Shown piece by piece: positions 15,012 through 32,364 of a DNA stretch of 32,364 bases. Source of the stretch: Thermoplasmatota archaeon (GTDB lineage Archaea; Thermoplasmatota; Penumbrarchaeia; Penumbrarchaeales; Penumbrarchaeaceae); the NCBI GenBank assembly GCA_965234725.1, contig CBDDUX010000082.1:1-32364 (forward strand), in the 5' to 3' direction. The notes beneath the pieces are model-generated. The model saw only the letters and a program-made list of their open reading frames with translations, was not told the DNA's origin and did not search any database. Numbering within the stretch: position 1 is the first letter of the stretch; every line of letters starts with the position of its first letter. A program made the position numbers and the translations under genes.

Positions 15012-15044
15012 TGTCTGACACCGCGAGCGGTTACTTCACCATTG

Positions 15045-15101
15045 TATTAAAGCTATTGGTATGGATAATATCCATTGACACTTGATTATGATCTTATCAT
15101 A
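15045..15101 (-). promoter_or_regulatory. hydrogenase operon promoter with two upstream palindromes
   Basis: Minus-strand CCAATAGC-TTTAATA (BRE/TATA-like, 15045-15059); ATGGATA-A-TATCCAT at 15061-15075; TATGAT-CTT-ATCATA at 15087-15101. Confidence 0.55.
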
Positions 15102-15215
15102 CCATATCTGGGGTCTGTAGGCATTATAAAAGTGCGGATCGTGAATTATATTTCATAGTTTCAGGACGATCTGTAACAATGGTTTTGAGATCCCTTCCAT
15201 ATGGTTTGGAATGGA

Positions 15216-16283
15216 TTAACAGATCCTGGGGACCGGGTCCCCGTAGGGAGCATCCATTATCCTTCTGCCTCCGATGGCGGTCTCGATAACCACTCTGGGC
15301 TTGCCTTTGATCACCCTTCCGATGATCTCAGCATCTCGTCCCAGAGGATGGGCCTTGATCGAGGATAGGACACTATCTTCCATTCCATCGACCACGGCTA
15401 TAATGGCCTTCCCCTCGTTACCGATCTCGAACGGGTCCAGTCCCAGCATGTCGCAGGCGCTCACAACCTGCGGTTTGACCGGGATCGATCCCTCGTTGAC
15501 CTCGACCCCATATCCTGATTTCGAGGACCATTCGTTCAGACCGTTGGCCAAACCTCCCCTTGTAAGGTCCTTTGCCGCTGTTATTCCCCCAACCTCTATC
15601 GCTTCATCCATAAGAGAAGTGAGGGGTGCAACATCCGATCGGAGGTCCGTATCGAATCCATAGCCCTCCCTGAAAGATAGAAGCGAGATCCCGTGGTCTC
15701 CCACAGAACCTGTGAGAATGATGTGATCATTGGGTCTGATGGAATCATCCCGAAGCCATGATTGTCCCTTGGGTCTTGTTGATCTTCCCGAAAGGTCAAG
15801 ACATCTTTCAAGGGACGGATGCCTGAAACCTATCCCTGCTGTGGTGACCACCATCCCTTTTACCCCTCCTCTTTCCACAACCTTGGTATCACCTGTGATC
15901 ACAGCAACGCCAGCTTCCCTGGAGGATCTCCCTATTGACTTTGACACCCTTTCAAGTAGTTCCATTGAAAGGCCTTCCTCAATGACCATGGAAAGTGCCA
16001 AGGCCCTGGGGACAGCACCAACGACCGCCAGGTCGTTCACGGTTCCGCATACGGAAAGGGAACCGATGTCCCCTCCGGGAAATTCAAGCGGCCAAACAGT
16101 GTGACCGTCTATTGTCATGGCAACATCGTTGATGACAGCTGAATCATCCATGAGGTCAGGGGCCAATCCGCTATCCTCGATCTCGATCGAACCCCTTATG
16201 TTCGGAATGAGGATGGTCCTTAAAAGCTCCTGCATGAGCTCTCCCCCGGCCCCTTGTCCGAGCTTGACACCGTTACCTTCCAT
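15216..16283 (-). CDS. hypE: hydrogenase maturation carbamoyl dehydratase HypE
   Basis: GAGG, FPGGDIGSLSVCGTVNDLA, TGDTKVV, DLTRGGLA, NEGK, C-terminal PRIC; start placed at ATG 16283 (ORF track 16328). Confidence 0.95.
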   Translation of the reverse strand: MEGNGVKLGQGAGGELMQELLRTILIPNIRGSIEIEDSGLAPDLMDDSAVINDVAMTIDGHTVWPLEFPGGDIGSLSVCGTVNDLAVVGAVPRALALSMVIEEGLSMELLERVSKSIGRSSREAGVAVITGDTKVVERGGVKGMVVTTAGIGFRHPSLERCLDLSGRSTRPKGQSWLRDDSIRPNDHIILTGSVGDHGISLLSFREGYGFDTDLRSDVAPLTSLMDEAIEVGGITAAKDLTRGGLANGLNEWSSKSGYGVEVNEGSIPVKPQVVSACDMLGLDPFEIGNEGKAIIAVVDGMEDSVLSSIKAHPLGRDAEIIGRVIKGKPRVVIETAIGGRRIMDAPYGDPVPRIC

Positions 16284-19200
16284 TGTTACCTGCCCCATTA
16301 CTGTCCGGAACGGGAACATCTTCATCAAGGTTGTCCTTGTAAGCCTTCAGGAACACACCCTTTCCAATGATGAAGACCACGATAAGGATCACTATGGCTA
16401 TCAGTGAAAAACCAAGAAGTATCACTAGTAGGAAGGTCTCAGGGGGCCTTCTTTCATTATTTCCCTTAACCTCCAGGGATTCATTGATCTCCAATTCACC
16501 TGCATAGGTCCCGTTCAATGTCTCACCGTTCACTTTAAGTTCCAGTTCGAGAACAGAACCTTCCTTGAAGGGGCCGACAATATCCATGAACAGATCACCG
16601 GTGGAAGATGGTCCGACCAAGATCCCCCTTTCTCCGACGATCTGAGAGGTAGAGATGTCATTTGCTGATACGATGAATGTGAGCTGTATCGGTCCATCAT
16701 TCCTTATTCGAACTGTAAATTGTCCCCCTTCCTCCGTTGCCTCGGAGGATAGGATCCTGGCACTCCATGGGAACTCTCCCCACCCCCATAATGATACAAG
16801 GACCCTCACCTTTCTCTGAGCCGTATTCCCTGTGGAATCTGTTACATCTAATGTGATATTGTGGATCCCGGGAGAAAGCGTGGTATAGAGATGCTCCTTG
16901 ATGGAACCGGGACCGTTCAATGCACCATCTATGTCAGATGTCCATCTGTAGGTCAGATTATCACCATACTGGGTATCCGGATCGAACGCATCCGCCAGGA
17001 GCAGGACAGATCTTCCGGGAAGGATCACCGATCCGTTTACCGGGGAGAGGATCGTAACACCTGTTGGAGGGTCCGGAATACTTTGTATGATTATTCCCAT
17101 TATCAGGAAGGAGGAAACCTCTCCGTCGGATACCTTGACCTTGACAAAACCTTCTCCGGATTGGTCCTGTTGCGGCAGAATGTTCAGCAGATCATCCGAT
17201 ATCTCAGCGAGGAATGGATAGTAATCCTCCACCGAGATTATCAACGGATCACCGTCAGGATCGTAGGCGATCTTATCCAGGTCCATTGAAAAGGATCCGT
17301 TGTCCTCTATTAGGTAAATCAGGTCGATACCCCCGAAGAACTCGGGTGGTCTGTTGATGTGTTTGGTGGTTACCTTTATCGGACCTGCCATCTCCGAGAT
17401 GGGACCATCATCGTCAACAGCGGAGACCCCGTACTCGTATGTGGTATTGTCCTTGAGACCCCGATCGACAAAATGAATGGCGGTTTGGGATAGGTTTCCA
17501 ACCAGTTTGAAACCGTTCTCATTTGGTCCCTTTCTGTAAACCAGATAGGCTGAGATATCCTGGATGAAAGGAGGGTCCCAGAAGATCTCCACGGATGTGT
17601 TGGTCAACGGTTGGGCATACAGTGAACGGGGAGGGGGTGGTGGTACCAGGTCGAAAGGGGTACCTGTCACATTCGGGGCAAGGCTAGATATCTGCCCGTT
17701 GTGATCTTCGGTAAGTATGGAGATATTATAGGCTACCCCGTTTTCAAGATCACTGAGAATTACCTCGTTCTTTGGATAGGTCACATATTCATTTGGTGAG
17801 GGTCCGGCAGGGCTTGAATACTTTATGATCGTCCGATTGATATCTTCCCCAACGAAATCCCAGCTGACTTTCAGGGAACTTCCCTCATTGAGGGATTCCA
17901 CAACGATGTTCTTGGGAGGGAGAGGGGCCTGGTCCACGTTGATCCTCAGATCATGGGACCATCCCCTGTATCCTCTGGAATTGTAACCTGTGATCCTGAA
18001 ATAGAGGGTGGAGTTGGGATTGTTCTCAATGGTGATGGAATCCCCGGAAACAGACCAGATAGTGAGGTCCTTTGAAAAATCCTTCTGGGTGGATCTCTGT
18101 ATGAGGACGCCATCAATATCATTCGTTGTCCAGGTAATATTTATTCTTCCTGTTCCGGAGAAATGGTATGCGGTGAAATCAGGGATATAGGGCATCTCCC
18201 AGTACAAATCCTTCATGAGAGGATAGAGGTCCCGGCCATTGTGAGGGAGATCGGTATCACCGATCCCGTCCTCTCTGATCCGATCACCGCTTCCGTCATC
18301 CTTTCCCCTGTAAGACGTGTAATAGTTGCCTTCCTTCAGGTCGGAATCATACCACATGGAATCAGGAATGCCCTCGGTTTCCCTGAAGTTAAGGATGAAA
18401 GCATTATGATAGATCAGACAGTCCTCGGGTTCCGAGATCGCAACTCCGCATTCGATGAACCGGGACCTTGTAACGGTCACACTTTTTGGAGATATCAGTC
18501 CTGCGATACAATCGATGAACGTGGAGTTGACCACCCATCCAACCTGTATCATATCTATTCCATCGATCTCGGTGAATACCGTATTAAAAGAGACAAGTGA
18601 CTTCTCCCTCATGTTGATGGAACCGTTCACCACTTTCGAATCTTTGATGTCTATCAACCCAAGAGAATCAATGGGGACCTCCGATCCGATTATCGATGAG
18701 GACCTGATGTACGTCCTTGTGGCGATATTCGTTGTGATCCCACTAGAGCAGTTGATCAGATGGCAGTTGTTGATGTTCAGGGCGCCTTCCTGGTTCATTA
18801 TCCCATTTTTATGGTCTATGACGGTCAGGTTCTCAAGGTTGATCATGGAAGTGGAGACCGTTGTCACGGCGTGGTTGGGGTCCATGTTACTGCTTCTGAA
18901 TGTGGAATTGGCCAGATGTGAGTCATCATTAAGGATGACCCTTGTATCCTCGAGTAGATCCGAATCAAGAATTAGCAGATCTCCTTCCAAGGACAGATTG
19001 GAACCGTATGAGTTGGTTATGGAAATATTTCCTGTTGTACCGGTGCTCAATAGCGTTCTCCAAGTCCCATTTCCGATTATCTCCGATCTGTCCTCTGTGG
19101 TCGTTGGATCGTTATCCAGATCGGTGATCTCAACTATACCTTCCGTATAGATCTGATAGGAAGAGTTCACGGTGACCGTGGTGTTCCTCAATACCAATTT

Positions 19201-19787: not shown

Positions 19788-21241
19788 CAGAACATCCCCC
19801 CCATGTCCCAGGGAGGATACGAATTGAAATGGAGAGGACCTGACATTATAAGGAAGGTCCACCCGATCCTCGGAGAGGCCGCTATTGCAAACGGGGCAAT
19901 CCAGATAAGATACCATGGATGGAACTGTGCGGATGTGATCAGAAGCAGTATCAAAGCAAGGGCTGAGAGACCGGTTAGGTTTTTGGAGTCCATTGACCAT
20001 GTCAGGATCTCCTTGATCCTGAATATATTTGGAATATTGTTCTCCCTCTTTCTTGACCACAGCAGGATGCTGAAAATGATAGATGAAATGGTCAATGTAA
20101 TTGGTAGGATGCCAAGAATGAGCAATGGTCCTTTGGTCCCGATCAGGAGAATGGACAGGAAATAACCCAGGGGAATGATGGATAGGATGGAAAGTGCGAT
20201 CATGATAACATGGGAATGTTTTCCTTTGCCTCTTGAAATAAGAAGAATGGTTCCGATGATGAGCAATAATGTTGCCAGCAGGAATGAGAGCCCTTCCATC
20301 AGCCCAATCTCATTGAAAAGAATATCCAGGATAAATTGGAATGAATTGGAGGAACCCCAGCCTGATGACTGATAGATCAGATATCCGAAGATCCCTGAAG
20401 GGTCACGTATGATGAACGGTAATGCTGACAGCACGGGAACAATAAAGAATCCAAGGAAGAACATGGACCTCCCCTTCCATTTCTTAATTGTGAAAAAGAA
20501 GAATGGAGTGAGGATGATCGGGAACATCTTGAGAGCGAATCCGGCTCCCAGGAATATTCCTGAGATCAGGTTGCTGCTCTTTGACAGGAACAGGAATGAT
20601 AGAAGGACCAGGGTTGCAACCACCGGATCGAAATGTCCTGCGATCCCGGTCTCGATCAGAGCCACAGGCCACAATGCATATGCTGCGGCTCCCAGGTCCC
20701 AGCCGATACCCATCGGTGAGGTTCGGATCTTCCCGATGGACCACATTATGGGTGGGATCAGTGAGTTGAATATGATGAATACCAGTCTGAATGAGAGCGG
20801 GTCAGGACCCAGAAGGTGTGAAATGGAAGCCACCATCCAGATGTAGAGAGGCGGTTTGTTGATCTCAAAATCCTCGTAGGGAGTTAGTCCATCGAGGAGG
20901 GCCTCTCCTCTGAACTGGAGCCTCATGATATCCTGTGAGAAGGAGGGTTCGAACATAAGAAGGAATAACTGGAGGATGAAAGGGATCAGAAATAGTGGTA
21001 TGAAGGACCATTTCTTCTTCAACAGGTCCGCTGTTATTTCTGATCTGGAGAGGGAGAGGACCAGTCCCAAGTAGAGAATGAAATTGATGGAGAAGAATAA
21101 TTGATAGTAACCCCATCGATTGCTGAAATAAGCTGAAAGGAAGAATGTGAACAGATAGAAAATGGATATCAGAACGAGGAAGGACCGCTTTGAAACGATG
21201 GAGAGGACCTTCTGCTTCAGAGGACCTCCTCTTTCATCCAT
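19787..21241 (-). CDS. GT-C fold polytopic glycosyltransferase (GT87-like)
   Basis: Many TM helices; SQDI, PY..NKPP, GHFD, LKMFP, FHPWYLIW motifs; leaderless start about 25 bp below TTTTAAAA. Confidence 0.8.
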   Translation of the reverse strand: MDERGGPLKQKVLSIVSKRSFLVLISIFYLFTFFLSAYFSNRWGYYQLFFSINFILYLGLVLSLSRSEITADLLKKKWSFIPLFLIPFILQLFLLMFEPSFSQDIMRLQFRGEALLDGLTPYEDFEINKPPLYIWMVASISHLLGPDPLSFRLVFIIFNSLIPPIMWSIGKIRTSPMGIGWDLGAAAYALWPVALIETGIAGHFDPVVATLVLLSFLFLSKSSNLISGIFLGAGFALKMFPIILTPFFFFTIKKWKGRSMFFLGFFIVPVLSALPFIIRDPSGIFGYLIYQSSGWGSSNSFQFILDILFNEIGLMEGLSFLLATLLLIIGTILLISRGKGKHSHVIMIALSILSIIPLGYFLSILLIGTKGPLLILGILPITLTISSIIFSILLWSRKRENNIPNIFRIKEILTWSMDSKNLTGLSALALILLLITSAQFHPWYLIWIAPFAIAASPRIGWTFLIMSGPLHFNSYPPWDMGGMF

Positions 21242-21286
21242 GGGTCGGGGAAGGTCCGATGATTTTAAAAGGATTGCTTAAGAGGA
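21201..21286 (+). repeat. 86-bp direct repeat, copy 1 (glycosyltransferase 5' end plus promoter)
   Basis: 85/86 identical to 23106-23191 (single mismatch 21243 G vs 23148 T). Confidence 0.95.
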
Positions 21287-21390
21287 CCTTTTGTTGGAAA
21301 CGGATGGTCCACAGGACAGGATCGATGACTTGCCCGAGGGATGGATCCTGAGGGAGTGGGTGACCTTATAGGCACCAATGGGATCCGGAT

Positions 21391-21566: not shown

Positions 21567-21604
21567 CAATCCCGGGAAATATTTGGTGATTGTTCCCGGG
21601 ATTG
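21567..21604. promoter_or_regulatory. 12-bp inverted repeat upstream of the HATPase TATA box
   Basis: CAATCCCGGGAA-N14-TTCCCGGGATTG; TTTTATATATATAAA follows at about 21616-21630. Confidence 0.6.
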
Positions 21605-21652
21605 CCGGTGATTATTTTTATATATATAAAAGTATATGCTATTCCCGGTAAA

Positions 21653-22615
21653 ATGAAGGCATTCATTCCCAACAGTGCTTTCCTTGGAAATATCGATCCC
21701 TTCATCAGATCCCTGGACCTATCGGACCCAAATAAACTTGAGGTGACTGGTAACAGGAAATGGATCTCCATTCATCCTGTAATTCTTACGATCATTGCAT
21801 CAATGGGATCGAATTTGCAACCGGAAAATGTCAAGATCGACCTGGAGGCAAGGTCCGGTCATTATCTGGAAAGAATGGGATTGCACAGCATGCTTGGAGT
21901 CGAACCACAGAATCCCGTGATCGAGCATGAACCATCCGGAAGGTTCATCCCCATTTCACGGATCAAAGGATCCGATGACCTGAGCGGGTTCATAACCGAT
22001 GTCATTCCTCTTCTTCATCTTGAACCGGAAATGGCCCTCCCTATAAAATATACATTGAGCGAACTCGTTCGGAATGTACTGGAGCACTCCGAATCACCCG
22101 ATGGAGCGATCGTGGCGGCGCAATATTACGCAAAGAGCAATACGATCAGATTGGGAATAACCGATAATGGTGTTGGGATCAGACGGACGATCAGTAGATC
22201 ACACCTTACAGGCTCCGATCTTGAGGCCATCAGGCTTTCCCTCATGCCCGGGATCACCGGAACCACCAGGAGAGAAGGAGGTACAGAACAGAACGCCGGG
22301 GCAGGTCTGTTCTTCATCAAATCCATAGCGACAGTGAAAAGGGACTTCTTCATGGTCTATTCAGGAAATGCCATGTATAAACTCCTCAGGTCCAGGAATT
22401 TGAGAAGAAAACGAAAATTGAATGCGGATCCGTTCAAGGATAGACATTCCTGTGGTGAAGAATATCCCTATTGGGGAGGTACAGTGGTCGGAATAGACAT
22501 ATCCTTATCCGAAACAGAGGAATTCTCGGATCTACTGGATGATATCAACAGGACCTATATTCAAACTATAAAGGAGAGGAAAAAGGCAAGATACAGGAGA
22601 CCCAGATTTCAATGA
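21653..22615 (+). CDS. GHKL/HATPase_c domain protein (anti-sigma kinase-like)
   Basis: N box ELVRNVLEHS, G1 ITDNGVGI, G2 NAGAGLF; ATG 21653 lies about 25 bp below the TATA box. Confidence 0.85.
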   Translation: MKAFIPNSAFLGNIDPFIRSLDLSDPNKLEVTGNRKWISIHPVILTIIASMGSNLQPENVKIDLEARSGHYLERMGLHSMLGVEPQNPVIEHEPSGRFIPISRIKGSDDLSGFITDVIPLLHLEPEMALPIKYTLSELVRNVLEHSESPDGAIVAAQYYAKSNTIRLGITDNGVGIRRTISRSHLTGSDLEAIRLSLMPGITGTTRREGGTEQNAGAGLFFIKSIATVKRDFFMVYSGNAMYKLLRSRNLRRKRKLNADPFKDRHSCGEEYPYWGGTVVGIDISLSETEEFSDLLDDINRTYIQTIKERKKARYRRPRFQ

Positions 22616-22905
22616 CCGAAGTATCCATTGTGGAAATGGCTGGTACATTTGCAGAGAATAAGGATGTGGCCAGAAGGATAAGGGAAGAGATTTTGTTCCC
22701 CGCTCTTATCCGGAACGAGGAGATAACAATGGATTTTGAAGATATTGAATCTGCAACACAATCATTCATTCATGCATTGATCAGCGAACCGATCAGAAGA
22801 TATGGTAGCGGTGTCCTTGATCACATCATCTTCAGGAATTGTAATGAAAATGTCAGGAAGATCATCCTCATCGTCTCTGATTACATGCAGGAAAGTGAAT
22901 CCTGA
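22612..22905 (+). CDS. STAS-like (DUF4325) protein
   Basis: ITMDFEDIESATQSF motif containing the conserved Ser; ATGA overlap with the HATPase. Confidence 0.85.
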   Translation: MTEVSIVEMAGTFAENKDVARRIREEILFPALIRNEEITMDFEDIESATQSFIHALISEPIRRYGSGVLDHIIFRNCNENVRKIILIVSDYMQESES

Positions 22906-23105
22906 AATATTCTAAGGACCGTTAAGGTAACCAGGCAGGGTATAGAGAAGAATGGACTCGATTCAGGGCTCCGATCTGGGACCTCTCAAAGATACCCATA
23001 TAGGGGCTATGAATGGGTAAAAGGAATTCGGGTCCTGAAGTTCGTTTTTAATCCTGCTTAAATAACCAGACAGAATCTCCGGAAGTATATCTCCAATAGC
23101 CACCA

Positions 23106-23191
23106 GAGAGGACCTTCTGCTTCAGAGGACCTCCTCTTTCATCCATGTGTCGGGGAAGGTCCGATGATTTTAAAAGGATTGCTTAAGAGGA
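23106..23191 (+). repeat. 86-bp direct repeat, copy 2
   Basis: 85/86 identical to 21201-21286; carries a second copy of the TATA box and ATG on the minus strand. Confidence 0.95.
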
Positions 23192-23426
23192 ACTTCTTGG
23201 GTCAATGAGGAGAATATGATTATGGGTATCAGTGTGTAACCATTGCGGGCCCAAGGAATATGGATAGGTTTCCAGTACAGTTCTGTTTTCGACTGACCTT
23301 TGAGGAATATACGGGTTTATGATCACAAAATGTGACCTTAGAAAGGAGATGTGTGAGTCAGTGTTCTGACCATGATCACAGAACGTATAAAGGGATAGTG
23401 GAATCTTCTCCGTTAACAGGATGTAC

Positions 23427-25217
23427 TCACTCTTCGACCAGATTATTCGTGCGCTTTCTCATCAAGGACCATACGACGGTGATCCCCAGGCCAGTGACGA
23501 CCATAGCCCCAACTACCGCTACGACTAAGATCATCACATTCAGCCAGCCGCTATCATCTTCAGCGGGTTCGGGTGATTGGTATCCAACGATGTCCTCAGC
23601 TTCCAGATACATCTGTTCGATCTCCTCAGCAGTGAGCTCAACATGGTAGTCTTCCGGAGTTGCGCTCCGGGTGGCCAGTCCAGTCCCCCGGAAACGATAT
23701 ACCAGGTTTCCCCAATCGTCATGGTCTGTCAATACTTCGTTGGCTGGACTGGGGTGTCTCACTTGATTGTTCAGGTTAATATTCACTCCCTCCGAGGTCA
23801 CGTTGTCGTTGTCCCAGTTTATCCGCATATCGACTCCATCGTTTGTGTACATAAGACCGTCCGGCCCGGTCCACACTGTCACTTCCGTAATGCCGATCCC
23901 ATCGTTTTCATTCAGGTTCGACTCGTCCAGGTCCCAGCAATTACCATGGGAATAGTCCAACGGCCGGTTCGGTTTCCATGAATTGAATTGGAAAGCATAG
24001 TTCATGATGCTCAGATAGTTCGGTTTGTAATTGACTTCGACATCTCCTCCGTGTTCTAGGCCGAGCGCATGGCCGAGCTCATGCATGAAGACTGCTGCCT
24101 GGCTCTTACGGTTTCCTCCGTTTTCCAATGCGCCGAAGGCGAGAATGAAGTCATCACAAGGGGCGCCTTCTGCCACACCAGGACAAGTGTAGTTTGGGGG
24201 ATTCAACCATATCTTATTGACGAACAAGCAGTACCTGAAAGCTAGTTCCTTGGCCTCCAGGGTCTTCGGGTTGGACCGCTCATCAGGAGTTCCAAAATTG
24301 ATCGCTTTTTGGAGATATAATCCCTCAAAACTTTCCATTATGCCTATTGCGGGTAAAGATTCATCGATTACAACATGCAGGTTGATGCCGTTCACCCCGT
24401 CCGGATTTGAGACAGGTGCATTCGCGAAGGCGTCTTTGACATCTTCGATGGCCTCCGGTATGGGACGTCGGCCGGTGTAGTAGTCGGCTTCGACGAATAC
24501 GTCCTTGTGTTCCGAGTCTGCGCCCAGCATGGGTAGGTCCAGGTCCACCGTTCCGTCCTTGTCGAGGTCGATGCCATAGATCTCCCACGAGTCCGGGAGG
24601 CCATCGCCGTCGGTATCCTTCTCGATGGTCACTGTTATTGAACCCTTGTTGTCCTGGAAGTAGGAGTCCGCTTGGGAGATGAACAGAAATCGGGCGTTCC
24701 TGGGTACTTCGATCCAGGAACCCGTCTTAGGCTTAATAGAGAAATCCTCCGGGATGTCAGTGGGTTCCTGGTTGAAATGTGTGGTCCCAGTATCTGCATC
24801 ATACATTCCGCCATCGATAGCCCCAGGTACCCTGTGTTCCTCACCGACGGACAGGAGTTGGCTATTCATACTGAACACACCGATCAGCCCTGTCACATCC
24901 CTATAGACGAGAGGCCTGCTGTCCCACCCAGCATCATTACATACCTCCCCTTTGAAACTGATACAAATGTTGTCTCCGGGAAGGAAGCCAAAAGCTTGAA
25001 GATCGACCATAGCAGGTGATTCGATCATGCCTACGCCGCCCTGATATTCTTCAGTGTGGAGATAGGTCCCTCTGACCGGGACATCGATCTCGGCAATTCC
25101 ATCCCCTGGACTACCAGATTCCGCCGCAACTTCCGTAACCTCTATCTGAAAAGGAAGCGAGCTCAGGACCAGCAAGAAGAGTAGTCCGATGATCGTAATT
25201 CGGCGTAAAGCGATCAT
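23427..25217 (-). CDS. membrane-anchored secreted zinc metalloprotease (metzincin-type, 596 aa)
   Basis: Signal peptide from ATG 25217; DTDGDGLPDSWE Ca-binding motif; HELGHALGLEH; Met-turn SIMNY; C-terminal TM plus RKR. Confidence 0.85.
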   Translation of the reverse strand: MIALRRITIIGLLFLLVLSSLPFQIEVTEVAAESGSPGDGIAEIDVPVRGTYLHTEEYQGGVGMIESPAMVDLQAFGFLPGDNICISFKGEVCNDAGWDSRPLVYRDVTGLIGVFSMNSQLLSVGEEHRVPGAIDGGMYDADTGTTHFNQEPTDIPEDFSIKPKTGSWIEVPRNARFLFISQADSYFQDNKGSITVTIEKDTDGDGLPDSWEIYGIDLDKDGTVDLDLPMLGADSEHKDVFVEADYYTGRRPIPEAIEDVKDAFANAPVSNPDGVNGINLHVVIDESLPAIGIMESFEGLYLQKAINFGTPDERSNPKTLEAKELAFRYCLFVNKIWLNPPNYTCPGVAEGAPCDDFILAFGALENGGNRKSQAAVFMHELGHALGLEHGGDVEVNYKPNYLSIMNYAFQFNSWKPNRPLDYSHGNCWDLDESNLNENDGIGITEVTVWTGPDGLMYTNDGVDMRINWDNDNVTSEGVNINLNNQVRHPSPANEVLTDHDDWGNLVYRFRGTGLATRSATPEDYHVELTAEEIEQMYLEAEDIVGYQSPEPAEDDSGWLNVMILVVAVVGAMVVTGLGITVVWSLMRKRTNNLVEE

Positions 25218-25582
25218 TCCCCTGACATCATCCTCTCGAAGGTCACACGATATCCTATGAGCGATACCCTGCTGATAACAGTGACCGTAACCTTCCCTCG
25301 ATAGATGTGGTTGAACCATTTGCCTGGAAGAGCCAGTCCACTTCTGGATCTCGATTTTTGAGGGCGGCCGGCCTAAAAAATGTTTATTTCTTCGCATACC
25401 CATGACGATACCCCTACTGGACCTTAAATGAGAAACCGATAGAAATAATCTGTTACATTTCGGTCCGACATTAAAGGAATAAAAAATTGACAGTGAACGA
25501 GTAGCTTTATTCAAAGATATTTCTTCTATTTTTTTCGTTAATGATCATTCCATGACATAAAACCACAATGGGATCCTTGCTG

Positions 25583-25700
25583 TGGGCAGAACAGGTCTCA
25601 TTGTGATACTCAGGTGATGATTAAGAAACGTTTATTGCACTCGAGATTTTATTGGTATTTTTATGAAATATATGAAATGTTGATGGCTCGCGATGGGGCC
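25583..25700 (+). repeat. 118-bp intergenic block Y, copy 1
   Basis: Ungapped match to 29345-29462, 95/118 by hand count. Confidence 0.9.
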
Positions 25701-25722
25701 TCGGATGGGTATAGGAATAATG

Positions 25723-25750
25723 GGTCCTATATCAAGGGTATAAGGACCCC
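25723..25750 (+). repeat. 28-bp block W (second copy at 28312-28339)
   Basis: GGTCCTATATCAAGGGTATAAGGACCCC vs GGTCCTATATCATGGGTATCAGAACCCC, 25/28. Confidence 0.7.
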
Positions 25751-25825
25751 CCTCACATCACGCACCCACCGGAAAGTTATATTCTCCACCCCCCATTACC
25801 CACTCAAGGTGCGGGATAGAGAAAG

Positions 25826-25879
25826 ATGTTCATCTACCAGTCAAACAAGCGGGGATTCCTCGATCCGGTCCTCAAATGA
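25826..25879 (+). pseudogene. possible 5' stub of a DUF2075-type helicase gene
   Basis: MFIYQSNKRGFLD resembles the MIVYxxxKxxFLxD N-terminus I recall for that family; TATA-like GAAAGTTATAT upstream; truncated after 17 codons. Confidence 0.3.
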
Positions 25880-26074
25880 TACAAATGAAAGATTCGCATA
25901 CCTCTCTATTCACATAATTAAAAAGGATAATATCATGATGAGACCTGATAATGATGAGAATGGATATTGGGTCTGATCAAAAAGGAAAATACACATGCCA
26001 ACAAAAAGGAACTTTTCCCACCTCCCGGAACGAATTCTCAAGTTTTTTAGTCCCATTACAGAGGTGAGGACCAT

Positions 26075-27130
26075 ATGAGTTCACGTAAAGATCAGGATAA
26101 GAAAAAAGATCCCGGAAAGGGGCAATTTCTTGTATATCAAGCCGAGGATGGGGCACTCAAACTGGAAGTGAGGCTGGAAAATGAGACAGTTTGGCTTTCT
26201 CAGAAGCTAATGGCCGAGCTATTCCAGAAGGATGTTCGGACCATAAATGAACACATACGGAATGTTTACGACGAGGGAGAACTTGATCCAGATTCAACTA
26301 TCCGGAAATTCCGGATAGTTCAAACCGAGGGCAGAAGACAGGTTGCCCGTTTGGTCGAATTCTACAATCTTGACATGATAATTTCAGTTGGATACCGTGT
26401 GAAAAGCCATGTTGCTACCAGATTCAGGATCTGGGCAACTCAGAAGCTGAAGGAATACATAATCAAAGGATTTGTCCTGGATGACGAGAGATTGAAAAAC
26501 CCGGATCAACCTTTCGATTATTTCGAAGAGTTAACACTCCGCATTCAGGACATAAGAACGTCCGAGCGACGCTTCTACCAGAAGATAACGGATATCTATG
26601 CAACAAGTATTGACTACGATCCAACAATGAAGATAAGTATTGATTTCTTCAAGACGGTTCAGAATAAAATGCACTGGGCCATTACAGGCCTAACTGCAGC
26701 CGAACTCATTCATTCCAGAGCGGATTCAACAAAGCACCATATGGGTTTGACAAATTACCGTGGAACAAAGGTGCGAAAACAGGATGCGATGATTGCAAAA
26801 AACTATCTTTCGGAGGATGAACTGTCAGCTCTGAATAATCTGGTCGAACAATATCTGATCTTTGCTGAAGGGCAGGCGATGCGCCGCATTCCGATGTACA
26901 TGAAGGATTGGATAAAGAAATTGGATGGCTTTCTATCCATCAATGATCGGGACATATTGAAAGATACCGGAAAAATATCTCATGAAATGGCGGAGCAACA
27001 GGCCAGAGATGAGTATGAGAAGTTCAATGCCAGAAGGATTGCGGAGATTAAGAATCACCTGAGTGACTTTGATCAATCGGTAAGGCAAATAGAAAGCGGG
27101 AAATCCAGAAAAAAGGATGAGGACACTTAG
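26075..27130 (+). CDS. rhuM: RhuM-family (Virulence_RhuM) DNA-binding protein
   Basis: ETVWLSQKLMAELF, YNLDMIISVGYRVKS, FRIWAT, IRTSERRFYQK, VQNKMHWA, AKNYL; GAGGTGA RBS. Confidence 0.92.
   Translation: MSSRKDQDKKKDPGKGQFLVYQAEDGALKLEVRLENETVWLSQKLMAELFQKDVRTINEHIRNVYDEGELDPDSTIRKFRIVQTEGRRQVARLVEFYNLDMIISVGYRVKSHVATRFRIWATQKLKEYIIKGFVLDDERLKNPDQPFDYFEELTLRIQDIRTSERRFYQKITDIYATSIDYDPTMKISIDFFKTVQNKMHWAITGLTAAELIHSRADSTKHHMGLTNYRGTKVRKQDAMIAKNYLSEDELSALNNLVEQYLIFAEGQAMRRIPMYMKDWIKKLDGFLSINDRDILKDTGKISHEMAEQQARDEYEKFNARRIAEIKNHLSDFDQSVRQIESGKSRKKDEDT
26296..26320. repeat. perfect 25-bp coding palindrome inside rhuM
   Basis: AACTATCCGGAA-A-TTCCGGATAGTT, encoding TIRKFRIV. Confidence 0.9.
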
Positions 27131-27160
27131 GACCTGTGGATTGGAAGGAATGGTCAATAT

Positions 27161-27240
27161 AGTGCCGGACAGGCCCAATGTATCGGATTTATTCAAGCTC
27201 TAAGGAGGTCCACGGGTTTTGGGGTGGGGCCTCGAATGGG
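27161..27240 (+). repeat. post-gene repeat Z, copy after rhuM
   Basis: AGTGCCGGACAGGCCC...CTCTAAGGAGGTCC...TGGGGCCTCGAATGGG; starts 31 bp after the stop. Confidence 0.8.
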
Positions 27241-27384
27241 CATGGGTGTAAATACCTTATTAAAAAGGTATTCCCCATACCAACAAATGGTGTTGAACTA
27301 CACGACATCATCAGAATTTGATAAATCATTATATAATCCCAATACAGATTCCAGGAACCATCCAATGAAAAGGGAAGTAACAAG

Positions 27385-27675
27385 ATGAACAATATCATGG
27401 AGATATTGGAAATATTGAATCAGGTCAAACCTGAAATTAAGACCAGATTCAAGGTTAAGAATATTGGAATATTCGGATCTTATGCCAGGAATGAAGAGAC
27501 CGAGGACAGTGATGTGGATATTCTTGTCGAGCTCGAAGAACCCATCGGTCTGGATCTTGTGGAGCTGATATTCTTCCTGGAGGAGAAATTGGGTAAGAAA
27601 GTCGATCTGGTCACGACAAAATCACTGAGATCGGAATTCCAGGAAGTTATAAGCAAAGAGGTGGTCTTCACTTGA
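27385..27675 (+). CDS. minimal nucleotidyltransferase (MNT/MntA-type antitoxin)
   Basis: IFGSYARNEETEDSDVDILVE, LGKKVDLVT. Confidence 0.92.
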   Translation: MNNIMEILEILNQVKPEIKTRFKVKNIGIFGSYARNEETEDSDVDILVELEEPIGLDLVELIFFLEEKLGKKVDLVTTKSLRSEFQEVISKEVVFT

Positions 27676-28007
27676 ACAGGACCAATTCTCATTTCTTAAG
27701 TGACATGAAAACCTCGATCGACAGGATCGAGGAATATACCCGGGAAATGGAATTGGAGGATCTCAGGGATGATCAGAAAACAATGGATGCAGTGATAAGG
27801 AATCTGGAGATCATCGGAGAAGCAGCGAGAAATCTGGATTCCGATATTCGTAAGGATCATCCCGCCATACCCTGGAGAAAGATAATCGGACTTAGAAACA
27901 TCATTTCACATGCGTATTTCGGAATCGATTGGGAGAATATCTGGAAGATAATAAGAGAAGATATTCCGGAATTCAGGGACGAACTGGAATCCATTCAGGT
28001 CGAATAA
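27672..28007 (+). CDS. HepT-like (DUF86) HEPN ribonuclease toxin
   Basis: DAVIRNLEIIGEA, IPW..GLRNIISHAYF (Rx4HxY). Confidence 0.92.
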   Translation: MNRTNSHFLSDMKTSIDRIEEYTREMELEDLRDDQKTMDAVIRNLEIIGEAARNLDSDIRKDHPAIPWRKIIGLRNIISHAYFGIDWENIWKIIREDIPEFRDELESIQVE

Positions 28008-28037
28008 TAATTCCGGGAAATTCAATCTCCATTTCAC

Positions 28038-28233
28038 AGTGCCGGACAGGTCCTATATTTTTGTTTTTTTTTAAAACTCTAAAGGAGGCCCTATATGTCT
28101 CGGATTGGGGCCTCGAGTTGGGTAAAATAGGTCTCGAAATAGGTCACTACTGACACCATAGGTGTCAGGGTGCGAAATGTCTCGGGACAGGGCAGGGGTG
28201 AATCGATGAGATCTATAATGCCAGAGGTCCTTC
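28038..28233 (+). repeat. post-gene repeat Z plus 106-bp block X (longest copy)
   Basis: Starts 31 bp after the HepT stop; 28128-28233 matches 30590-30695 at 94/106; hairpin CTGACACC-ATA-GGTGTCAG at 28150-28168. Confidence 0.9.
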
Positions 28234-28306
28234 TTCCACCCCAACTTGACATCACAGTTTGTGATTTCAAGTTCTCATGTTCATTTTCCGTAAGTTGAAA
28301 GCAGAA
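28229..28306 (-). pseudogene. isolated 26-codon ORF6N-domain fragment
   Basis: FCFQLTENEHENLKSQTVMSSWGGRR aligns with FCFQLNEEEFIKWRSQTVISN..GLRR of 29519-30439; contains a 31-bp palindrome at 28243-28273. Confidence 0.8.
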
Positions 28307-28522
28307 ATATTGGTCCTATATCATGGGTATCAGAACCCCTTTCATACCCAAACATCGAGAAATATTGATCACCAAAATCACGGCTTCTGCATATGCACCA
28401 CTGAGAAGAGCCCCTTTGTCCGCGAATGAGGTCCCTTTCATTGTTCATTTGATTCGATGAAGTGAAGGTTAAACATAATAATTAAAAGAAGAATATCATT
28501 TCAGTAACAGGGTAGTGTATAA

Positions 28523-28834
28523 ATGGAAGATATACTGAAGCAGATCATTGAAAGGATCGTTAACATAGTTGATCCAGATATGATCCTCCTCTTCGGATCC
28601 AGAGCTTCAGGGAAAGAAAGTGACGATAGCGATATTGATCTTCTTATAATAAAATCCGGATTGAAGAATTCAAGGGAATTGGCAAAGAAGGTCTATTCCT
28701 CCCTTTCCGGTATCGGTGTTCCGGTCGATTTTATATTGGTTGACAGGAGAAGAATGGATGAACATCTGGACGATCCTTATATGATATACGGGCAGGCGTT
28801 AAAGGAGGGTAAGACGCTCTATGCAAAGGCTTGA
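28523..28834 (+). CDS. minimal nucleotidyltransferase (second MNT)
   Basis: ILLFGSRASG..SDIDLLII, PVDFI. Confidence 0.9.
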   Translation: MEDILKQIIERIVNIVDPDMILLFGSRASGKESDDSDIDLLIIKSGLKNSRELAKKVYSSLSGIGVPVDFILVDRRRMDEHLDDPYMIYGQALKEGKTLYAKA

Positions 28835-29237
28835 GGATGTCAATATATGGATGGCCCGGTCCCTCAGCAACCTTGAAAAGGCCAGGATCAAAAGGGAGGA
28901 TAATAAGATCCTCTTTGAGGACCTCTGTTTTGACATACAGCAGTCTGCGGAAAAAGCATTGAAAGCGGTTTGCATAAAAGAAGGTATAATCTTCAAGAGG
29001 ACCCATGATATTTCATATCTTATCGATCTGGTCGAGAACAGTGGAATCGATGTATTCGATGTTGTCAAAAAGGGAAGGTACCTCACTCAATATGCGGTTG
29101 AAACCAGATATCCTGGTGTTTACGATCCGGTTAAAAAGGATGAATATGAAGAAGCTTTGAATGATGCTCAGGAGATATACGAATGGGCAAAAGATATTAC
29201 CGGATTTGAGATCCCGGATGAACCTGAAGAAGAGTAA
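28821..29237 (+). CDS. HEPN domain protein (QQxxEKxLKA subtype)
   Basis: LCFDIQQSAEKALKAV, THDI, YAVETRYP. Confidence 0.9.
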   Translation: MQRLEDVNIWMARSLSNLEKARIKREDNKILFEDLCFDIQQSAEKALKAVCIKEGIIFKRTHDISYLIDLVENSGIDVFDVVKKGRYLTQYAVETRYPGVYDPVKKDEYEEALNDAQEIYEWAKDITGFEIPDEPEEE

Positions 29238-29266
29238 ACCGGATCAATATTCATGTAATGGATGAC

Positions 29267-29462
29267 AGTGCCGAACAGGCCCAAGGTTTTGGATCTTATA
29301 CATGCTCCAATGTGTTCCCCAGGTCTCGATATGGAGCCTCGAGATGGGTAGAATAGGTCTCGACGTGATACATAGATGAGAGTTAAGTAACGTTTATTGC
29401 ACTTGAGATTATAGTGGTATTTTTATGAATAATATGAAATGTTTTTATCTCACGATGGGACC
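29267..29462 (+). repeat. post-gene repeat Z running into block Y, copy 2
   Basis: AGTGCCGAACAGGCCC starts 30 bp after the HEPN stop; core TGGAGCCTCGAGATGGGTAGAATAGGTCTCGA at 29332; 29345-29462 matches 25583-25700. Confidence 0.88.
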
Positions 29463-29518
29463 GTGATTGAAAAATTAGAATTCTTCAAGATGAGTTTTTT
29501 AACCAAACATAATCATTT

Positions 29519-30439
29519 TTAATTCAACAACTTCTCTATTCTTGAGAGGACCTCTATTGAATCGATCTCCATTTTGGAAAAGGCGAACCATTTCTTTCCA
29601 AGGTCTTTCAAGGAAGCTCCGAAATGGTAGATCTCTGAATTGTCGATTATTATGAATCTATCATGTGAAAGATCGAATTTCTCTATTTTCAGGTTCGGAT
29701 ATTGTTGATTGAATTTAAACAGATCAAGTTTAACTGCATCTGGAATCCTATTTGTCAGGATCTTGACATCTACACCCTTCCTCCTTTTTGATAGCAAAGT
29801 GAAAACGCTATCGTCAATGTAGTTGTCAATGATCATGATGTTGTCTGAAGCGGTCCTTATGAGGTCGGAAATGAATTGGTATGCATCATAGATCTGACCA
29901 TCGAAGAATATTCCCTGTCTTGGTTTGATGTCCTCGATCTCTATTATCGATAGAACCTCTTCCATCTTTCTTTCTGTTGTGATCTGCCTTTCTTCAAGAT
30001 TATTCAATCTTTGAAATATACCTGCATTGATGGTGGTCAACTTTCTCATTTCAACAAACGCTCTCATGATGCCAATATTCACTTCGATAGCTTTCTTACT
30101 TCTCAGAACAGATGAAAGCATTGCAATCCCCTGTTCGGAAAAAACATATGGTGGTCTCCTGAGTCCCATTCTATCCGAATTGGAAATAACAGTTTGTGAT
30201 CTCCATTTTATGAATTCCTCCTCATTTAATTGGAAACAGAAATCCTCCGGAAATCTCTCCTTATTCCTCTTTACTGCTTGATTAAGTGCTCCGGTATTTA
30301 CACCGTATAAAAAGGAAAGGTCCCTATCCATCATTACGAGAATATTTCGGAACTCGAAGATCCTACCATAAAACTCATTTTTGATCCGCGATGAACCATT
30401 ATCCAATTCATCTGTAACTTCTTCGATCTTGGAAGACAT
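29519..30439 (-). CDS. ORF6N DNA-binding domain protein with C-terminal PLD-like domain
   Basis: VMMDRDL..LYGV..LNQAVKRNKERFPEDFCFQL, PYVFSEQGIAMLSSVL; IIDNYID and HDRFIIID..GASLKDLGKK. Confidence 0.88.
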   Translation of the reverse strand: MSSKIEEVTDELDNGSSRIKNEFYGRIFEFRNILVMMDRDLSFLYGVNTGALNQAVKRNKERFPEDFCFQLNEEEFIKWRSQTVISNSDRMGLRRPPYVFSEQGIAMLSSVLRSKKAIEVNIGIMRAFVEMRKLTTINAGIFQRLNNLEERQITTERKMEEVLSIIEIEDIKPRQGIFFDGQIYDAYQFISDLIRTASDNIMIIDNYIDDSVFTLLSKRRKGVDVKILTNRIPDAVKLDLFKFNQQYPNLKIEKFDLSHDRFIIIDNSEIYHFGASLKDLGKKWFAFSKMEIDSIEVLSRIEKLLN

Positions 30440-30551
30440 TCTGTTTCACCGTATCTTCTTCTCTGTTGAGGTGTGTGTTATGTAGGTTTGTATTTATCTG
30501 AATCCGGGGGAGGGATCTATAAAAAGTGAATTAATCCCGATTTACTCTTTT

Positions 30552-30695
30552 GGGTTTTTGATTTATAAAAGACCTCCAAGGAGGTCCTCTAGGTCTCGAC
30601 ATAGGTCACCACTGACACCATGGGTGTCAGGGTGAAAAATGTCTCGGGACAGGGGAGGAATGAATCGTTGAAATCTGTAATGCTAGAGGTCCTTC
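30552..30695 (+). repeat. internally deleted repeat Z plus block X, copy 2
   Basis: GACCTCC-AA-GGAGGTC hairpin at 30571-30586; CTGACACC-ATG-GGTGTCAG at 30612-30630; lacks the segment between the two GTCTCG motifs of the 28038 copy. Confidence 0.88.
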
Positions 30696-30727
30696 ATTGC
30701 GAATTCCAGATATTTATTATGATATGA

Positions 30728-30799
30728 TCAGTGATCTGAATCTCTGTATGTGAAGATAGCCTTCAATTCTTCCAATGATCTACGAGCTATCGGCTCCAT
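30728..30799 (-). pseudogene. 23-codon stub of the gene coupled to the AbiEi-like gene (probable collapsed partner toxin)
   Basis: GGTGA RBS and ATG overlapping the upstream 3' end; MEPIARRSLEELKAIFTYRDSDH*. Confidence 0.5.
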
Positions 30800-31772
30800 A
30801 ATTCTTCACCATTTCAATTAGAAGGTCCTTCCCCGAATAACCCAATCCTGCTACATCAAGAACAGTCTGTTCTTTGGATGTGATCCTTATTCCATCTATG
30901 ACAATGGAATCATCATTCACATCTCTGTCAGGGTTGAATATCTTAAGTTTGATCCCTTTGTCATTGTTTGAGGAGAACTCCTTCCTTATGATCTCTCTGG
31001 TTTCAATGTCACTGATATAACACTGGACAAGATCGCTTCTTATCCCCAACCCGAAGTGCAAATTGGAGGCAATGTAGGCACACATGACAGCAGGCAATCT
31101 CCTCCTTTCAGACCAATCTGTCAAGGTTCTTGCCAGGTCGTGGGTTGAATCGAATGAAGTTACTATTTCAAAATCTTCCAGGTCCTTCAAAGGCCTTTCC
31201 CAGGCTACTGCATTCAACAAATTATCCAGGTCTGCGATCTCGATAATGTTATTTTTTCTGTCTACAATATCTCTTGAGATCAAATTGGTGATAACACCAT
31301 GAGTCCAGCCATATGATATTCCCTCGGATCTTGAAATGCTTCTGATAGAGCATGGTGATCTTTTGATAAGATGAAGTATGATCCTCCAAGCTTTTTCGGA
31401 TGTTAATTTACCCCTGGGTCTTTTGTTTTCCTTTTGAATGAATATGTTTTCGGGAAGATGAATTATATCTATGTTCAGCTGACTTGCTCCTCTCTGGATG
31501 GAATCAGGGATGATCCTACCGGCAACAATAGTGTCGGTTACATTGATCTCAAGTTCTCTGGCCAAGAGAAGATGGGATAACTTCTCCCAGGATGCTGTAT
31601 GACATAGTTCAACTAGCACCTTTCTATTTTCATCCTCTATCAATATGTCAATACGAACCGGAAGATCATTTGAGATGGGAGTTTCGAAATGAAATCTCGC
31701 TCTGGATGTGAGGTCAAGGTTCTTTATCAATACCTCCTTCAAGAGGTTTTCATCCCGATCTCTGGTTTTCAT
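30780..31772 (-). CDS. AbiEi-like (type IV TA antitoxin-like) protein: degenerate PD-(D/E)xK-like N-terminus, wHTH, AbiEi-type C-terminus
   Basis: RIDILIE..VLVEL; SIRSISRSEGISYGWTHGVITNL HTH; DGIRITSKEQTVLDV. Confidence 0.6.
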   Translation of the reverse strand: MKTRDRDENLLKEVLIKNLDLTSRARFHFETPISNDLPVRIDILIEDENRKVLVELCHTASWEKLSHLLLARELEINVTDTIVAGRIIPDSIQRGASQLNIDIIHLPENIFIQKENKRPRGKLTSEKAWRIILHLIKRSPCSIRSISRSEGISYGWTHGVITNLISRDIVDRKNNIIEIADLDNLLNAVAWERPLKDLEDFEIVTSFDSTHDLARTLTDWSERRRLPAVMCAYIASNLHFGLGIRSDLVQCYISDIETREIIRKEFSSNNDKGIKLKIFNPDRDVNDDSIVIDGIRITSKEQTVLDVAGLGYSGKDLLIEMVKNYGADSS

Positions 31773-31840
31773 AATGGGTATCGGTAATTAGTGTGAGTTA
31801 TATATAATTATCAGTGATATGTATATCTGTTATTGGAGAT

Positions 31841-32106
31841 ATGTATGATGAATTGTCAGTGATATACTTCGATCTACATTTTCGAATATTTCTTCTTCTC
31901 TTGAAAGTATAGAATTGATATTCTCCCAGATCACAAGAGATTCCGAATATCGGAGGATCGTCACAGATTTCACCCAACGAGCAAAGACGGACCAATCTCT
32001 AAAGGGCATCAAGGGCCTCTATGGAAAAGATCCTAGAAGAGCAGAGAGGATCGCCGACGACATCATCAAGAGTTTCAGTTTCCTGATGGGGCCTCGATCG
32101 GGGTAA
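31841..32106 (+). pseudogene. frameshifted or collapsed gene remnant, divergent from the AbiEi-like gene
   Basis: GGAG plus ATG (MYDELSVI) in one frame, protein-like SDILRS...DDIIKSFSFL in another; the 3' end runs into the repeat core at 32085. Confidence 0.4.
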
Positions 32107-32119
32107 AATAGGTCTCGAA
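32085..32119 (+). repeat. core of repeat Z
   Basis: GATGGGGCCTCGATCGGGGTAAAATAGGTCTCGAA matches 28104-28138. Confidence 0.8.
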
Positions 32120-32178
32120 GGAAGGTCCAAATGTTAATGATATTTAGAAATAGGATAGATGTACATTATTTCAAGGAT

Positions 32179-32364
32179 CTACTTGAATGTATTAATCATC
32201 TCGACCAATAAATAGACGAGTGTAAGAGGAGTTGAGTCCCTACTCATTAAAACTGTATTATTCTTCAGATGAATTCTTTCAATTTTCTTTCCATTCATAA
32301 TAGCATTTTTAAGAGCCTGTCCGAGAATTAGCCTACTGGAACCTCCTATCGATCCATAGTACCA
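32179..32364 (-). CDS. 3' end of an unidentified protein (starts outside the window)
   Basis: 61 open codons WYYGSIGGSSRLILGQALKNAIMNG...VEMINTFK* ending TAG at 32179-32181. Confidence 0.55.
   Translation of the reverse strand, partial: WYYGSIGGSSRLILGQALKNAIMNGKKIERIHLKNNTVLMSRDSTPLTLVYLLVEMINTFK

Follow-up and report, generated by a model that had tools for sequence, protein, structure and literature searches.

How islands of defence and toxin–antitoxin (TA) genes build up is mostly unknown beyond integrons and a few phage and satellite hot spots, and is least known in Archaea. In integrons, the attC sites carry inverse core sites, R'' (RYYYAAC) and R' (GTTRRRY), which lie 50–150 nt apart. 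Integrative and cis-mobilisable elements are able to accrete in tandem at one att site, where direct att-like copies separate blocks of genes that have no integrase of their own and where the older copies decay. The archaeal integrons described by Ghaly et al. (2022, PMC9668308) share their structure with those of bacteria, and their attC sites are recombined by the bacterial integrase IntI1. The dif (pdif) modules described for Acinetobacter plasmids are discrete units, often of TA genes, with short sites on which a host recombinase acts in trans, and they have no dedicated integrase. Here, we analyse a 32,364-nt stretch of DNA from an uncultivated Thermoplasmatota archaeon (contig CBDDUX010000082.1 of assembly GCA_965234725.1, hereafter the window), the last ~7 kb of which forms a low-GC defence/TA island where a directional repeat of ~100 nt, the junction element, stands behind unrelated genes. 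The window is one complete contig and its end falls inside this island.

The junction element is one discrete, directional unit of ~100 nt composed of a short box, P1, a T-rich spacer and a core. Its parts follow each other in the order P1, T-rich spacer, GTCTCGR, 24 nt and TAGGTCTCGA, and behind the final GGTCTCGA a hairpin block (X or Y) usually comes directly. P1 (AGTGCCGRACAGGYCC) is matched exactly at 27161, 28038 and 29267, in each case on the + strand, where it starts on the 31st, 31st and 30th base past the stop codons of rhuM, HepT and HEPN (27130, 28007 and 29237), in agreement with the spacing reported in the initial annotation of this DNA. When up to three mismatches are allowed, six matches are found in the window against 0.62 expected, a count that none of 100 shuffles reaches; the other three matches, at 5992, 13954 and 14904, carry three mismatches each and lie inside coding sequence. 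Fourteen of the 16 positions of P1 are invariant while the spacer has drifted. The full core, TGGRGCCTCG-N4-GGGTA-N-AATAGGTCTCGA (32 bases), is present at 28106, 29332 and 32087, with 0.00 matches expected. It had been listed at five sites, and the remaining two, 25694 and 27225, keep the left half only: they have TGGGGCCTCG in common, followed by a variant right half in which these two copies are 81% alike (variant B). TGGRGCCTCG taken alone is weak evidence (eight matches at up to one mismatch against 3.6 expected, with 2 of 100 shuffles reaching eight); its co-occurrence with P1 is seen three times, at a gap of 48–52 nt and each time behind a different, unrelated gene.

Both ends of the element are defined to within a few bases. 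On the left, the three copies show 20–33% ungapped identity per 10-nt bin throughout the 60 nt that precede P1, a figure that rises to 93% for the initial 10 nt of P1. On the right, the last 10 nt up to the end of GGTCTCGA are 100% identical in six of six pairs, past which five of the six pairs drop to 20–40% identity and the sixth runs on as block X. What stands behind the terminal TAGGTCTCGA is X in two cases, Y in one (the first copy of Y follows a degenerate version) or unique sequence.

Three copies of the element carry P1. Copy 1, behind rhuM (27161–27251, + strand), consists of P1 (27161–27176), the T-rich spacer and a variant B core (27225–27251) without TAGGTCTCGA; copy 2, behind HepT (28038–28137, +), of P1 (28038–28053), an oligo-T spacer, GTCTCGG and a core (28106–28137) that ends in TAGGTCTCGA; and copy 3, behind HEPN (29267–29363, +), of P1 (29267–29282), a spacer and a core (29332–29363). 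The repeat is much better conserved than the genes it follows, with 27161–27240 and 29267–29348 being 75.6% identical over 82 nt of DNA, whereas the two nucleotidyltransferases of the island can be aligned only across 40 residues, at 37.5% identity. An eroded fourth copy at 30554–30599 (+) retains the spacer and the terminal TAGGTCTCGA, with the second copy of block X next to it; the stretch 30554–30605 matches positions 41–90 of the element (E = 1.8e-4), and the copy lacks P1 as well as 33 nt that lie between a pair of GTCTCGR direct repeats. A core-only copy without P1 or spacer lies at 32087–32118 (+; profile match 32078–32119, E = 7e-6), and a short open frame (31915–32106) extends into it. 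A core of variant B forms the right end of the first block Y (25694–25720, +; E = 1e-8 with a core profile that included this copy) and is directly followed by block W. A degenerate core forms the left end of the same block (25571–25607, +); the weak copy that had been suspected at 25569 is supported only as the left end of the Y alignment (25571–25700 against 29333–29462, 78% over 130 bases), and taken alone it reaches only E = 0.28. A further weak copy proposed at 23002, where the composite element would recur in degenerate form behind the DUF4325 gene, stays at chance level in local alignment against 300 shuffles (p = 0.10–0.38), gives no profile match and was discarded. Profile hidden Markov models built from the copies detected no further copies at E < 1 in positions 1–21000.

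As had been claimed, the repeats are all on one strand: every significant copy is on the + strand, and the second copy of X and the copy at 30554 stay in this orientation although they lie between - strand genes. The polarity is therefore a property of the array and not of the genes. The terminal TAGGTCTCGA ends at 28137, 29363, 30599 and 32118, which divides this part of the island into units of 1226, 1236 and 1519 nt; overall the gene units of the island span ~0.9–1.5 kb and its intergenic spacers are long (254–560 nt). A coding origin of the element was considered and rejected: P1 and core fall in one open frame with conservative changes in two of the three copies, copy 1 is out of frame, there is neither a start codon nor a parent gene, and amino-acid identity is ~47% at ~70% nucleotide identity by our own count. 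None of the ten spurious open reading frames (ORFs) over the repeats was found in the protein collection by exact look-up.

Two larger blocks and a palindrome recur with the element, all on the + strand. Block X is present at 28128–28233 and at 30590–30695, with 94 of 106 bases identical (88.7%), and block Y at 25583–25700 and 29345–29462, with 95 of 118 (80.5%), both as initially reported. The hairpin of the first X begins at the GGTCTCGA junction and the right end of this copy abuts a truncated ORF6N fragment, while the second X lies between two - strand genes. In the first Y, a long stem is formed by the right half of one core and the left half of the following one, and the second Y stands directly behind junction element 3. 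Block W, which had been described as a 28-bp repeat, does recur (25715–25755 and 28304–28344) and is longer than stated, with 41 bases at 80%; its first copy contains an imperfect palindrome, GGGTCCTATAT-CAAGGG-TATAAGGACCC, and its second begins where the ORF6N fragment stops. The stem CTGACACC-N3-GGTGTCAG is the same in both copies of X and the loops differ (ATA against ATG), which also agrees with the initial annotation. The ends of X and Y are imperfectly inverted, with GGTCTCGA... facing ...TCGGGAC or ...GATGGGACC, and make outer stems; imperfect inverted ends that form stems are found in Y and in the first 58 nt of X, and are absent from the junction element. Each end of Y is similar to half a core, so that the core reads as a right end of Y joined to a left end of Y.

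Three units also begin, behind the core, with an imperfect palindrome of 26–30 nt (25721–25749, 27254–27275 and 28308–28337). Units 1 and 3 have block W in common here, and in unit 2 the same place is taken by an unrelated sequence, AATACCTT-ATTAA-AAGGTATT; the palindromes behind the core could be operators or recombinase sites. The interior of the first Y (25635–25656) has a 22-nt inverted match of 77% at 32204–32225, behind the last core, with no profile match, and this resemblance may be due to chance.

In its architecture, this locus can fairly be called "integron-like without attC". Like integron arrays and clusters of attC sites lacking integron integrases (CALINs), the island consists of short units, many of them with TA or defence genes, and has a repeat of ~100 nt just past the stop codon and a single polarity; nor need an integrase adjoin such arrays. 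It differs from them in that there are no R''/R' boxes and no imperfect-palindrome hairpin, in that blocks of sequence are conserved and not a structure, and in that the spacers are 254–560 nt long, the units have apparent promoters of their own and two of them are inverted relative to the sites. The discrete modules, often of TA genes, and the lack of a dedicated integrase in the array are shared with pdif modules; in contrast, the latter are bounded by alternating 28-bp XerC/D sites, whereas the element here is ~100 nt long, asymmetric and always direct. Archaeal dif sites are described with an 11-6-11-like palindrome geometry (PMC2958812), and of the repeats in the window only block W has such a geometry, the arms of its first copy matching at 7 of 11 positions and its second copy being more degenerate. 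Tandem accretion at an att site resembles the island in having direct att-like copies that separate gene blocks without their own integrase and in the decay of older copies; here, however, the units are of ~1 kb with one or two genes, there is no tRNA or other target gene at the edge of the array (no tRNA or tmRNA gene is present in the window) and no integrase is seen.

A 100-nt sequence that has the same end points behind three unrelated genes is not there by descent; either the genes or the element moved. Movement of the genes is favoured because the copies are confined to the low-GC island and stand at each unit border, because one polarity is kept despite inverted genes, and because signs of insertion and breakage are found at the edges of the blocks. 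We therefore read the elements, tentatively and with somewhat less than even confidence, as joints left by small gene units that were inserted one after another in Campbell fashion. A small circular gene unit carrying one copy of the element would recombine with a copy in the array and end up bracketed by copies, and the sites would probably be re-used for further insertions. Recombination could be homologous, across 100–180 nt of shared sequence, or could be the work of a recombinase whose gene lies elsewhere. The array would then have been eroded by later deletions and by joins at microhomologies, leaving core-only copies, copies without P1 and fragments of genes. We infer insertion as the origin of the pattern, as well as the re-use of the sites and the identity of the acting enzyme. 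The initial annotation had proposed a family of recombination or landing sites through which genes are added as cassettes; a discrete, directional, non-attC element at unit borders is upheld, and to it are added block edges that coincide with truncated ORF6N genes and a 90-nt duplication; the mobility of the units is conjectural.

The signs of breakage come from gene debris. A decayed ORF6N fragment of 27 codons at 28226–28306 (- strand; Pfam ORF6N, E = 0.0036) has 22 of 27 residues in common with residues 63–89 of the protein P0121, shows 57% identity to the window's own intact ORF6N-PLD gene and is wedged exactly between the right end of the first X (28233) and the left end of the second W (28304). 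At the joint of X and ORF6N, 8 nt (GAAGGACC) are shared with the end of the second X by reading, and the joint looks like a microhomology join. A second decayed ORF6N fragment, which has an in-frame stop, lies at 23215–23334 (+; Pfam ORF6N, E = 0.0012), just behind the second copy of the 90-nt duplication, with E = 8e-5 to P0121 and E = 0.001 to the intact ORF6N gene. The long "intergenic" regions are thus in part dead genes, and the repeat blocks end at points of truncation. Since RhuM and the intact ORF6N-PLD protein both match the PADLOC candidate family PDC-S05, the two fragments bring the present and former members of this group in the island to at least four. A protein search for other copies of X with the translated region of its first copy gave one match (P0121), which is owed to the adjacent ORF6N fragment.

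The signs of insertion include the duplication itself, repeat A. Its first copy (21201–21290, +) comprises the upstream region and the first 14 codons of a GT87-like gene on the - strand, and its second (23106–23195, +) repeats residues 1–14 of this GT87-like protein at 100% (23146–23105); the two copies form a direct repeat that is 97.8% identical over 90 nt. They bracket a unit of two genes, HATPase_c-like and DUF4325 (21590–22905, +). When a circle enters by Campbell-type insertion at a short sequence common to both partners, a direct repeat remains, and, judged from its sequence, the repeat A pair looks like the footprint of a recent insertion of this kind.

Several observations weigh against serial insertion as the origin of the junction elements. 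One contig is the sole sample, and no circles or alternative junctions were seen in it. No integrase, transposase or other recombinase domain is encoded by the 30 ORFs or the 79 six-frame intergenic pieces of the window, and the contig ends inside the island. In a species-representative collection of 185,579 genomes, from which the genome of the window itself is absent, neither the core pattern CTCG-N4-GGGTA-N-AATAGGTCTCG nor the combination P1-N{40,62}-TGGRGCCTCG gave any match (0 in each case), so that a family outside this contig is without support from these two patterns. The element has no inverted symmetry and no significant fold, and thus does not resemble the usual substrate of a recombinase. 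The insertion model also leaves the fixed distance of P1 from three stop codons (30–31 nt) unexplained, and the T-rich tract after P1 and a stem of Y on the + strand only fit a role in the transcript. Finally, the copies of X (89%) are more alike than their flanks (roughly 70%, by reading), which suggests that X spreads, or is under selection, by itself.

If serial insertion is true, it would represent a second, independent route to cassette arrays, by way of a sharply bounded, directional, non-attC repeat, and P1 plus core would provide a sequence handle for finding such arrays, and the recombinase, in metagenomes. If the element is instead a terminator or small-RNA module or a local MITE family, it would be an ordinary lineage-specific repeat. 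A search of the open-access full-text literature returned no description of a comparable element (integrons, dif modules and surveys of MITEs, miniature inverted-repeat transposable elements, only). A more ambitious form of the insertion reading would make the locus an archaeal counterpart of the integron, in which a directional, non-palindromic site of ~100 nt (P1 30 nt past the stop codon of the cargo, a spacer whose length is constant and a core that closes with GGTCTCGA), with a strand-specific X or Y hairpin spanning the crossover, would allow an unknown recombinase encoded off the contig to collect and rearrange, in Thermoplasmatota, defence and TA cassettes that bring their own promoters; we consider this proposal quite improbable.

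The first alternative is that the repeats are RNA modules, in which P1 and the T-rich tract terminate the upstream gene and X and Y are structured elements of 3' untranslated regions (UTRs) or small RNAs of the + strand. Their recurrence would then stem from the acquisition of genes, along with their expression signals, out of one shared pool, or from gene conversion that homogenises the intergenic regions. Archaeal termination uses oligo-T tracts, and T-rich runs do follow P1 (for example TATATTTTTGTTTTTTTTT at 28054) after its near-constant distance from the stop codons. The long hairpin of X that starts from GGTCTCGA folds better than shuffles (z = -2.27, with 4 of 200 shuffles as good, and z = -3.64, with 0 of 200). 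For Y, a 12-pair outer helix (AGGTCTC... with ...GATGGGRCC) is predicted, and the two copies keep all 31 of 31 predicted pairs; five pairs change on one side (mostly to or from G-U) and two on both. The consensus fold of Y reaches -16.7 kcal/mol on the + strand versus -2.0 kcal/mol with 7 pairs on the - strand; any structure of Y is that of the + strand, as RNA or as single-stranded DNA. Opposed to this, the covariation in Y, which derives from two sequences, does not reach significance (it is equalled by 115 of 500 shuffles), and X has two one-sided and no compensatory changes in its 28 consensus pairs. A search of the window with Rfam 15 gave no match at gathering score and four at chance level (E 0.9–3), none of which lies on the repeats. 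The second X, being placed between two - strand genes, has no obvious 3' UTR to belong to, and a purely regulatory role would leave unexplained both the sharp ends behind unrelated, horizontally acquired genes and the fragments at the block edges. On balance this account appears unlikely, and a role as RNA or terminator could be compatible with insertion.

The description of the repeats as hairpin-rich accordingly holds for X and Y and does not extend to the stretch from P1 to the core, which folds no better than shuffles either as RNA (z = -0.55, -0.36 and +0.88) or, taken from stop codon to core, as single-stranded DNA (z = +0.82, -1.20 and -0.11 on the - strand; +0.70, -0.96 and +0.07 on the + strand). 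Readings of the core as a group II intron domain V, a C/D-box RNA or a tRNA-like structure were made by eye and dropped; Rfam gave them no support. A scan for bacterial-type promoters and terminators, which is not applicable to archaea, gave counts close to those of shuffles (25 against 23.0 and 14 against 9.7). TATA-like boxes are inferred by reading before the genes of the island, and the units seem to carry their own promoters.

A second alternative, which we judge similarly unlikely, is that the junction element, X and Y are small non-autonomous mobile elements that resemble MITEs, palindrome-associated transposable elements (PATEs) or repetitive extragenic palindromes (REPs) and insert themselves behind genes or 3' of GGTCTCGA with the help of a transposase encoded elsewhere, the genes remaining static. 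The repeats share with such families that they are small, non-coding, intergenic and hairpin-forming, often behind genes, and that they have discrete ends; X and Y are unrelated to each other and both begin right after GGTCTCGA, both are bounded by imperfect inverted ends, and the copies of X (89%) are either younger than the flanking spacer or under stronger constraint. Single-strand transposons of the IS200/IS605 type typically have one orientation only. Nevertheless, no target-site duplication was seen by reading at either copy of X or Y or at the borders of the three junction elements, and the junction element itself has neither a terminal inverted repeat nor a significant hairpin. The copies are confined to one island within 32 kb, with none in 21 kb of housekeeping DNA, and the window encodes no transposase. 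The genome collection described above yielded no match with either pattern, and a blastn search with 25500–32364 against plasmids (17 records) and phages (12) gave no match to the repeats among the matches listed, all of which are in rhuM or ORF6N-PLD coding sequence.

A third, less probable alternative sees the repeats as neutral remnants that segmental duplications and deletions left in an island under decay, now serving neither as sites nor as RNAs. The two ORF6N fragments, the copies that lack P1 or the core and a weak inverted fragment at 31807–32031 resembling the neighbouring 330-aa protein (E = 0.79) are all in keeping with decay, as is the 8-nt microhomology at the joint of X and ORF6N; an excess of GGWCC in the window favours such joins. 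Random duplication, however, would not give three copies, each behind an unrelated gene, end points that agree within a few bases on both sides, nor would it keep P1 nearly invariant beside a drifting spacer or maintain one orientation.

A true integron or CALIN with overlooked attC sites is very improbable: the short units, three of them co-oriented with a repeat right behind the stop, and TA and defence genes as the commonest annotated cargo of archaeal integron cassettes in the survey of these integrons (PMC9668308) speak for it, but in accordance with the initial annotation no RYYYAAC...GTTRRRY pair 47–157 nt apart is found in any intergenic region (by our own regular-expression heuristic and not by IntegronFinder), the attC-type scan yielding two candidate pairs per strand of which the sole pair complementary at 6 or more of 7 positions (26292–26393) lies inside rhuM, no hairpin on either strand exceeds shuffles, no IntI or tyrosine recombinase domain is encoded among the 30 ORFs and the main text of that survey uses the word Thermoplasmatota 0 times.

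The island stands out from the remainder of the window by its base composition, with a GC content of 0.406 at 25515–32364 against 0.489 at 1–21200. Its units begin with a RhuM family gene (26075–27130, +; Pfam E = 8e-113; PDC-S05) and continue with an MNT nucleotidyltransferase and HepT (27385–27675 and 27672–28007, +), a pair that resembles type VII TA systems and matches the NCBIfam MntA and HepT models below their cut-offs. These are followed by a second nucleotidyltransferase with a HEPN protein (28523–28834 and 28821–29237, +), by the intact gene with ORF6N and PLD-like domains (29519–30439, -, opposite to the repeats; PDC-S05) and by the 330-aa protein, of unknown function with a weak match to HVO_A0114 (30780–31772, -). 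The last gene (32182–32364, -) is cut by the contig end and has a very weak C-terminal RloB-like match (E = 0.082), which suggests that the defence island probably extends past the contig.

The rhuM gene (26075–27130) shows 66–72% nucleotide identity to rhuM genes on bacterial plasmids from several phyla, and the archaeal gene is either unusually conserved or has been exchanged across domains. Its frame stays open for 85 codons past the TAG stop (27131–27385, +), running through junction element 1, and this extension does not look like protein. A relative of HepT in the same 90% cluster, P0276 (84 aa, from another data set), has residues 44–111 in common with it and 15 unrelated residues in front, for which no match was found anywhere in the window. 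This is a hint of variation at the locus, and an artefact of assembly or gene calling is also possible.

Before rhuM lie a metalloprotease-like gene (23427–25514, -) and the two genes bracketed by repeat A, which encode a HATPase_c-like protein with a partial match to DrmA (21590–22615, +) and a STAS-like DUF4325 protein (22612–22905, +). Positions 1–21000 hold housekeeping genes, among them those for a MoxR ATPase, a phosphoglucomutase-type enzyme, a lipoate ligase, a NiFe hydrogenase with partners similar to NuoE and NuoF, and a HypE-like protein (15216–16328, -). The best named relatives of the latter are from metagenome-assembled Thermoplasmatota archaea (62–67% identity), while relatives without a name rise to 76% and one cluster to 99%. 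The stretch 9499–16328 (-) encodes the NiFe hydrogenase large subunit, a NuoG-like 2Fe-2S protein, NuoF- and NuoE-like proteins and HypE, as well as a fused NuoB-like/Fe-hydrogenase-like/ferredoxin subunit; this gene set is a soluble bidirectional-type hydrogenase operon that adjoins the island. Across the window GGTCC and GGACC (together GGWCC) occur 103 and 93 times, 196 in all against roughly 63 estimated for equal base use, and this approximately threefold excess, which is found in coding and non-coding DNA alike, could reflect a codon-pair or restriction-related bias.

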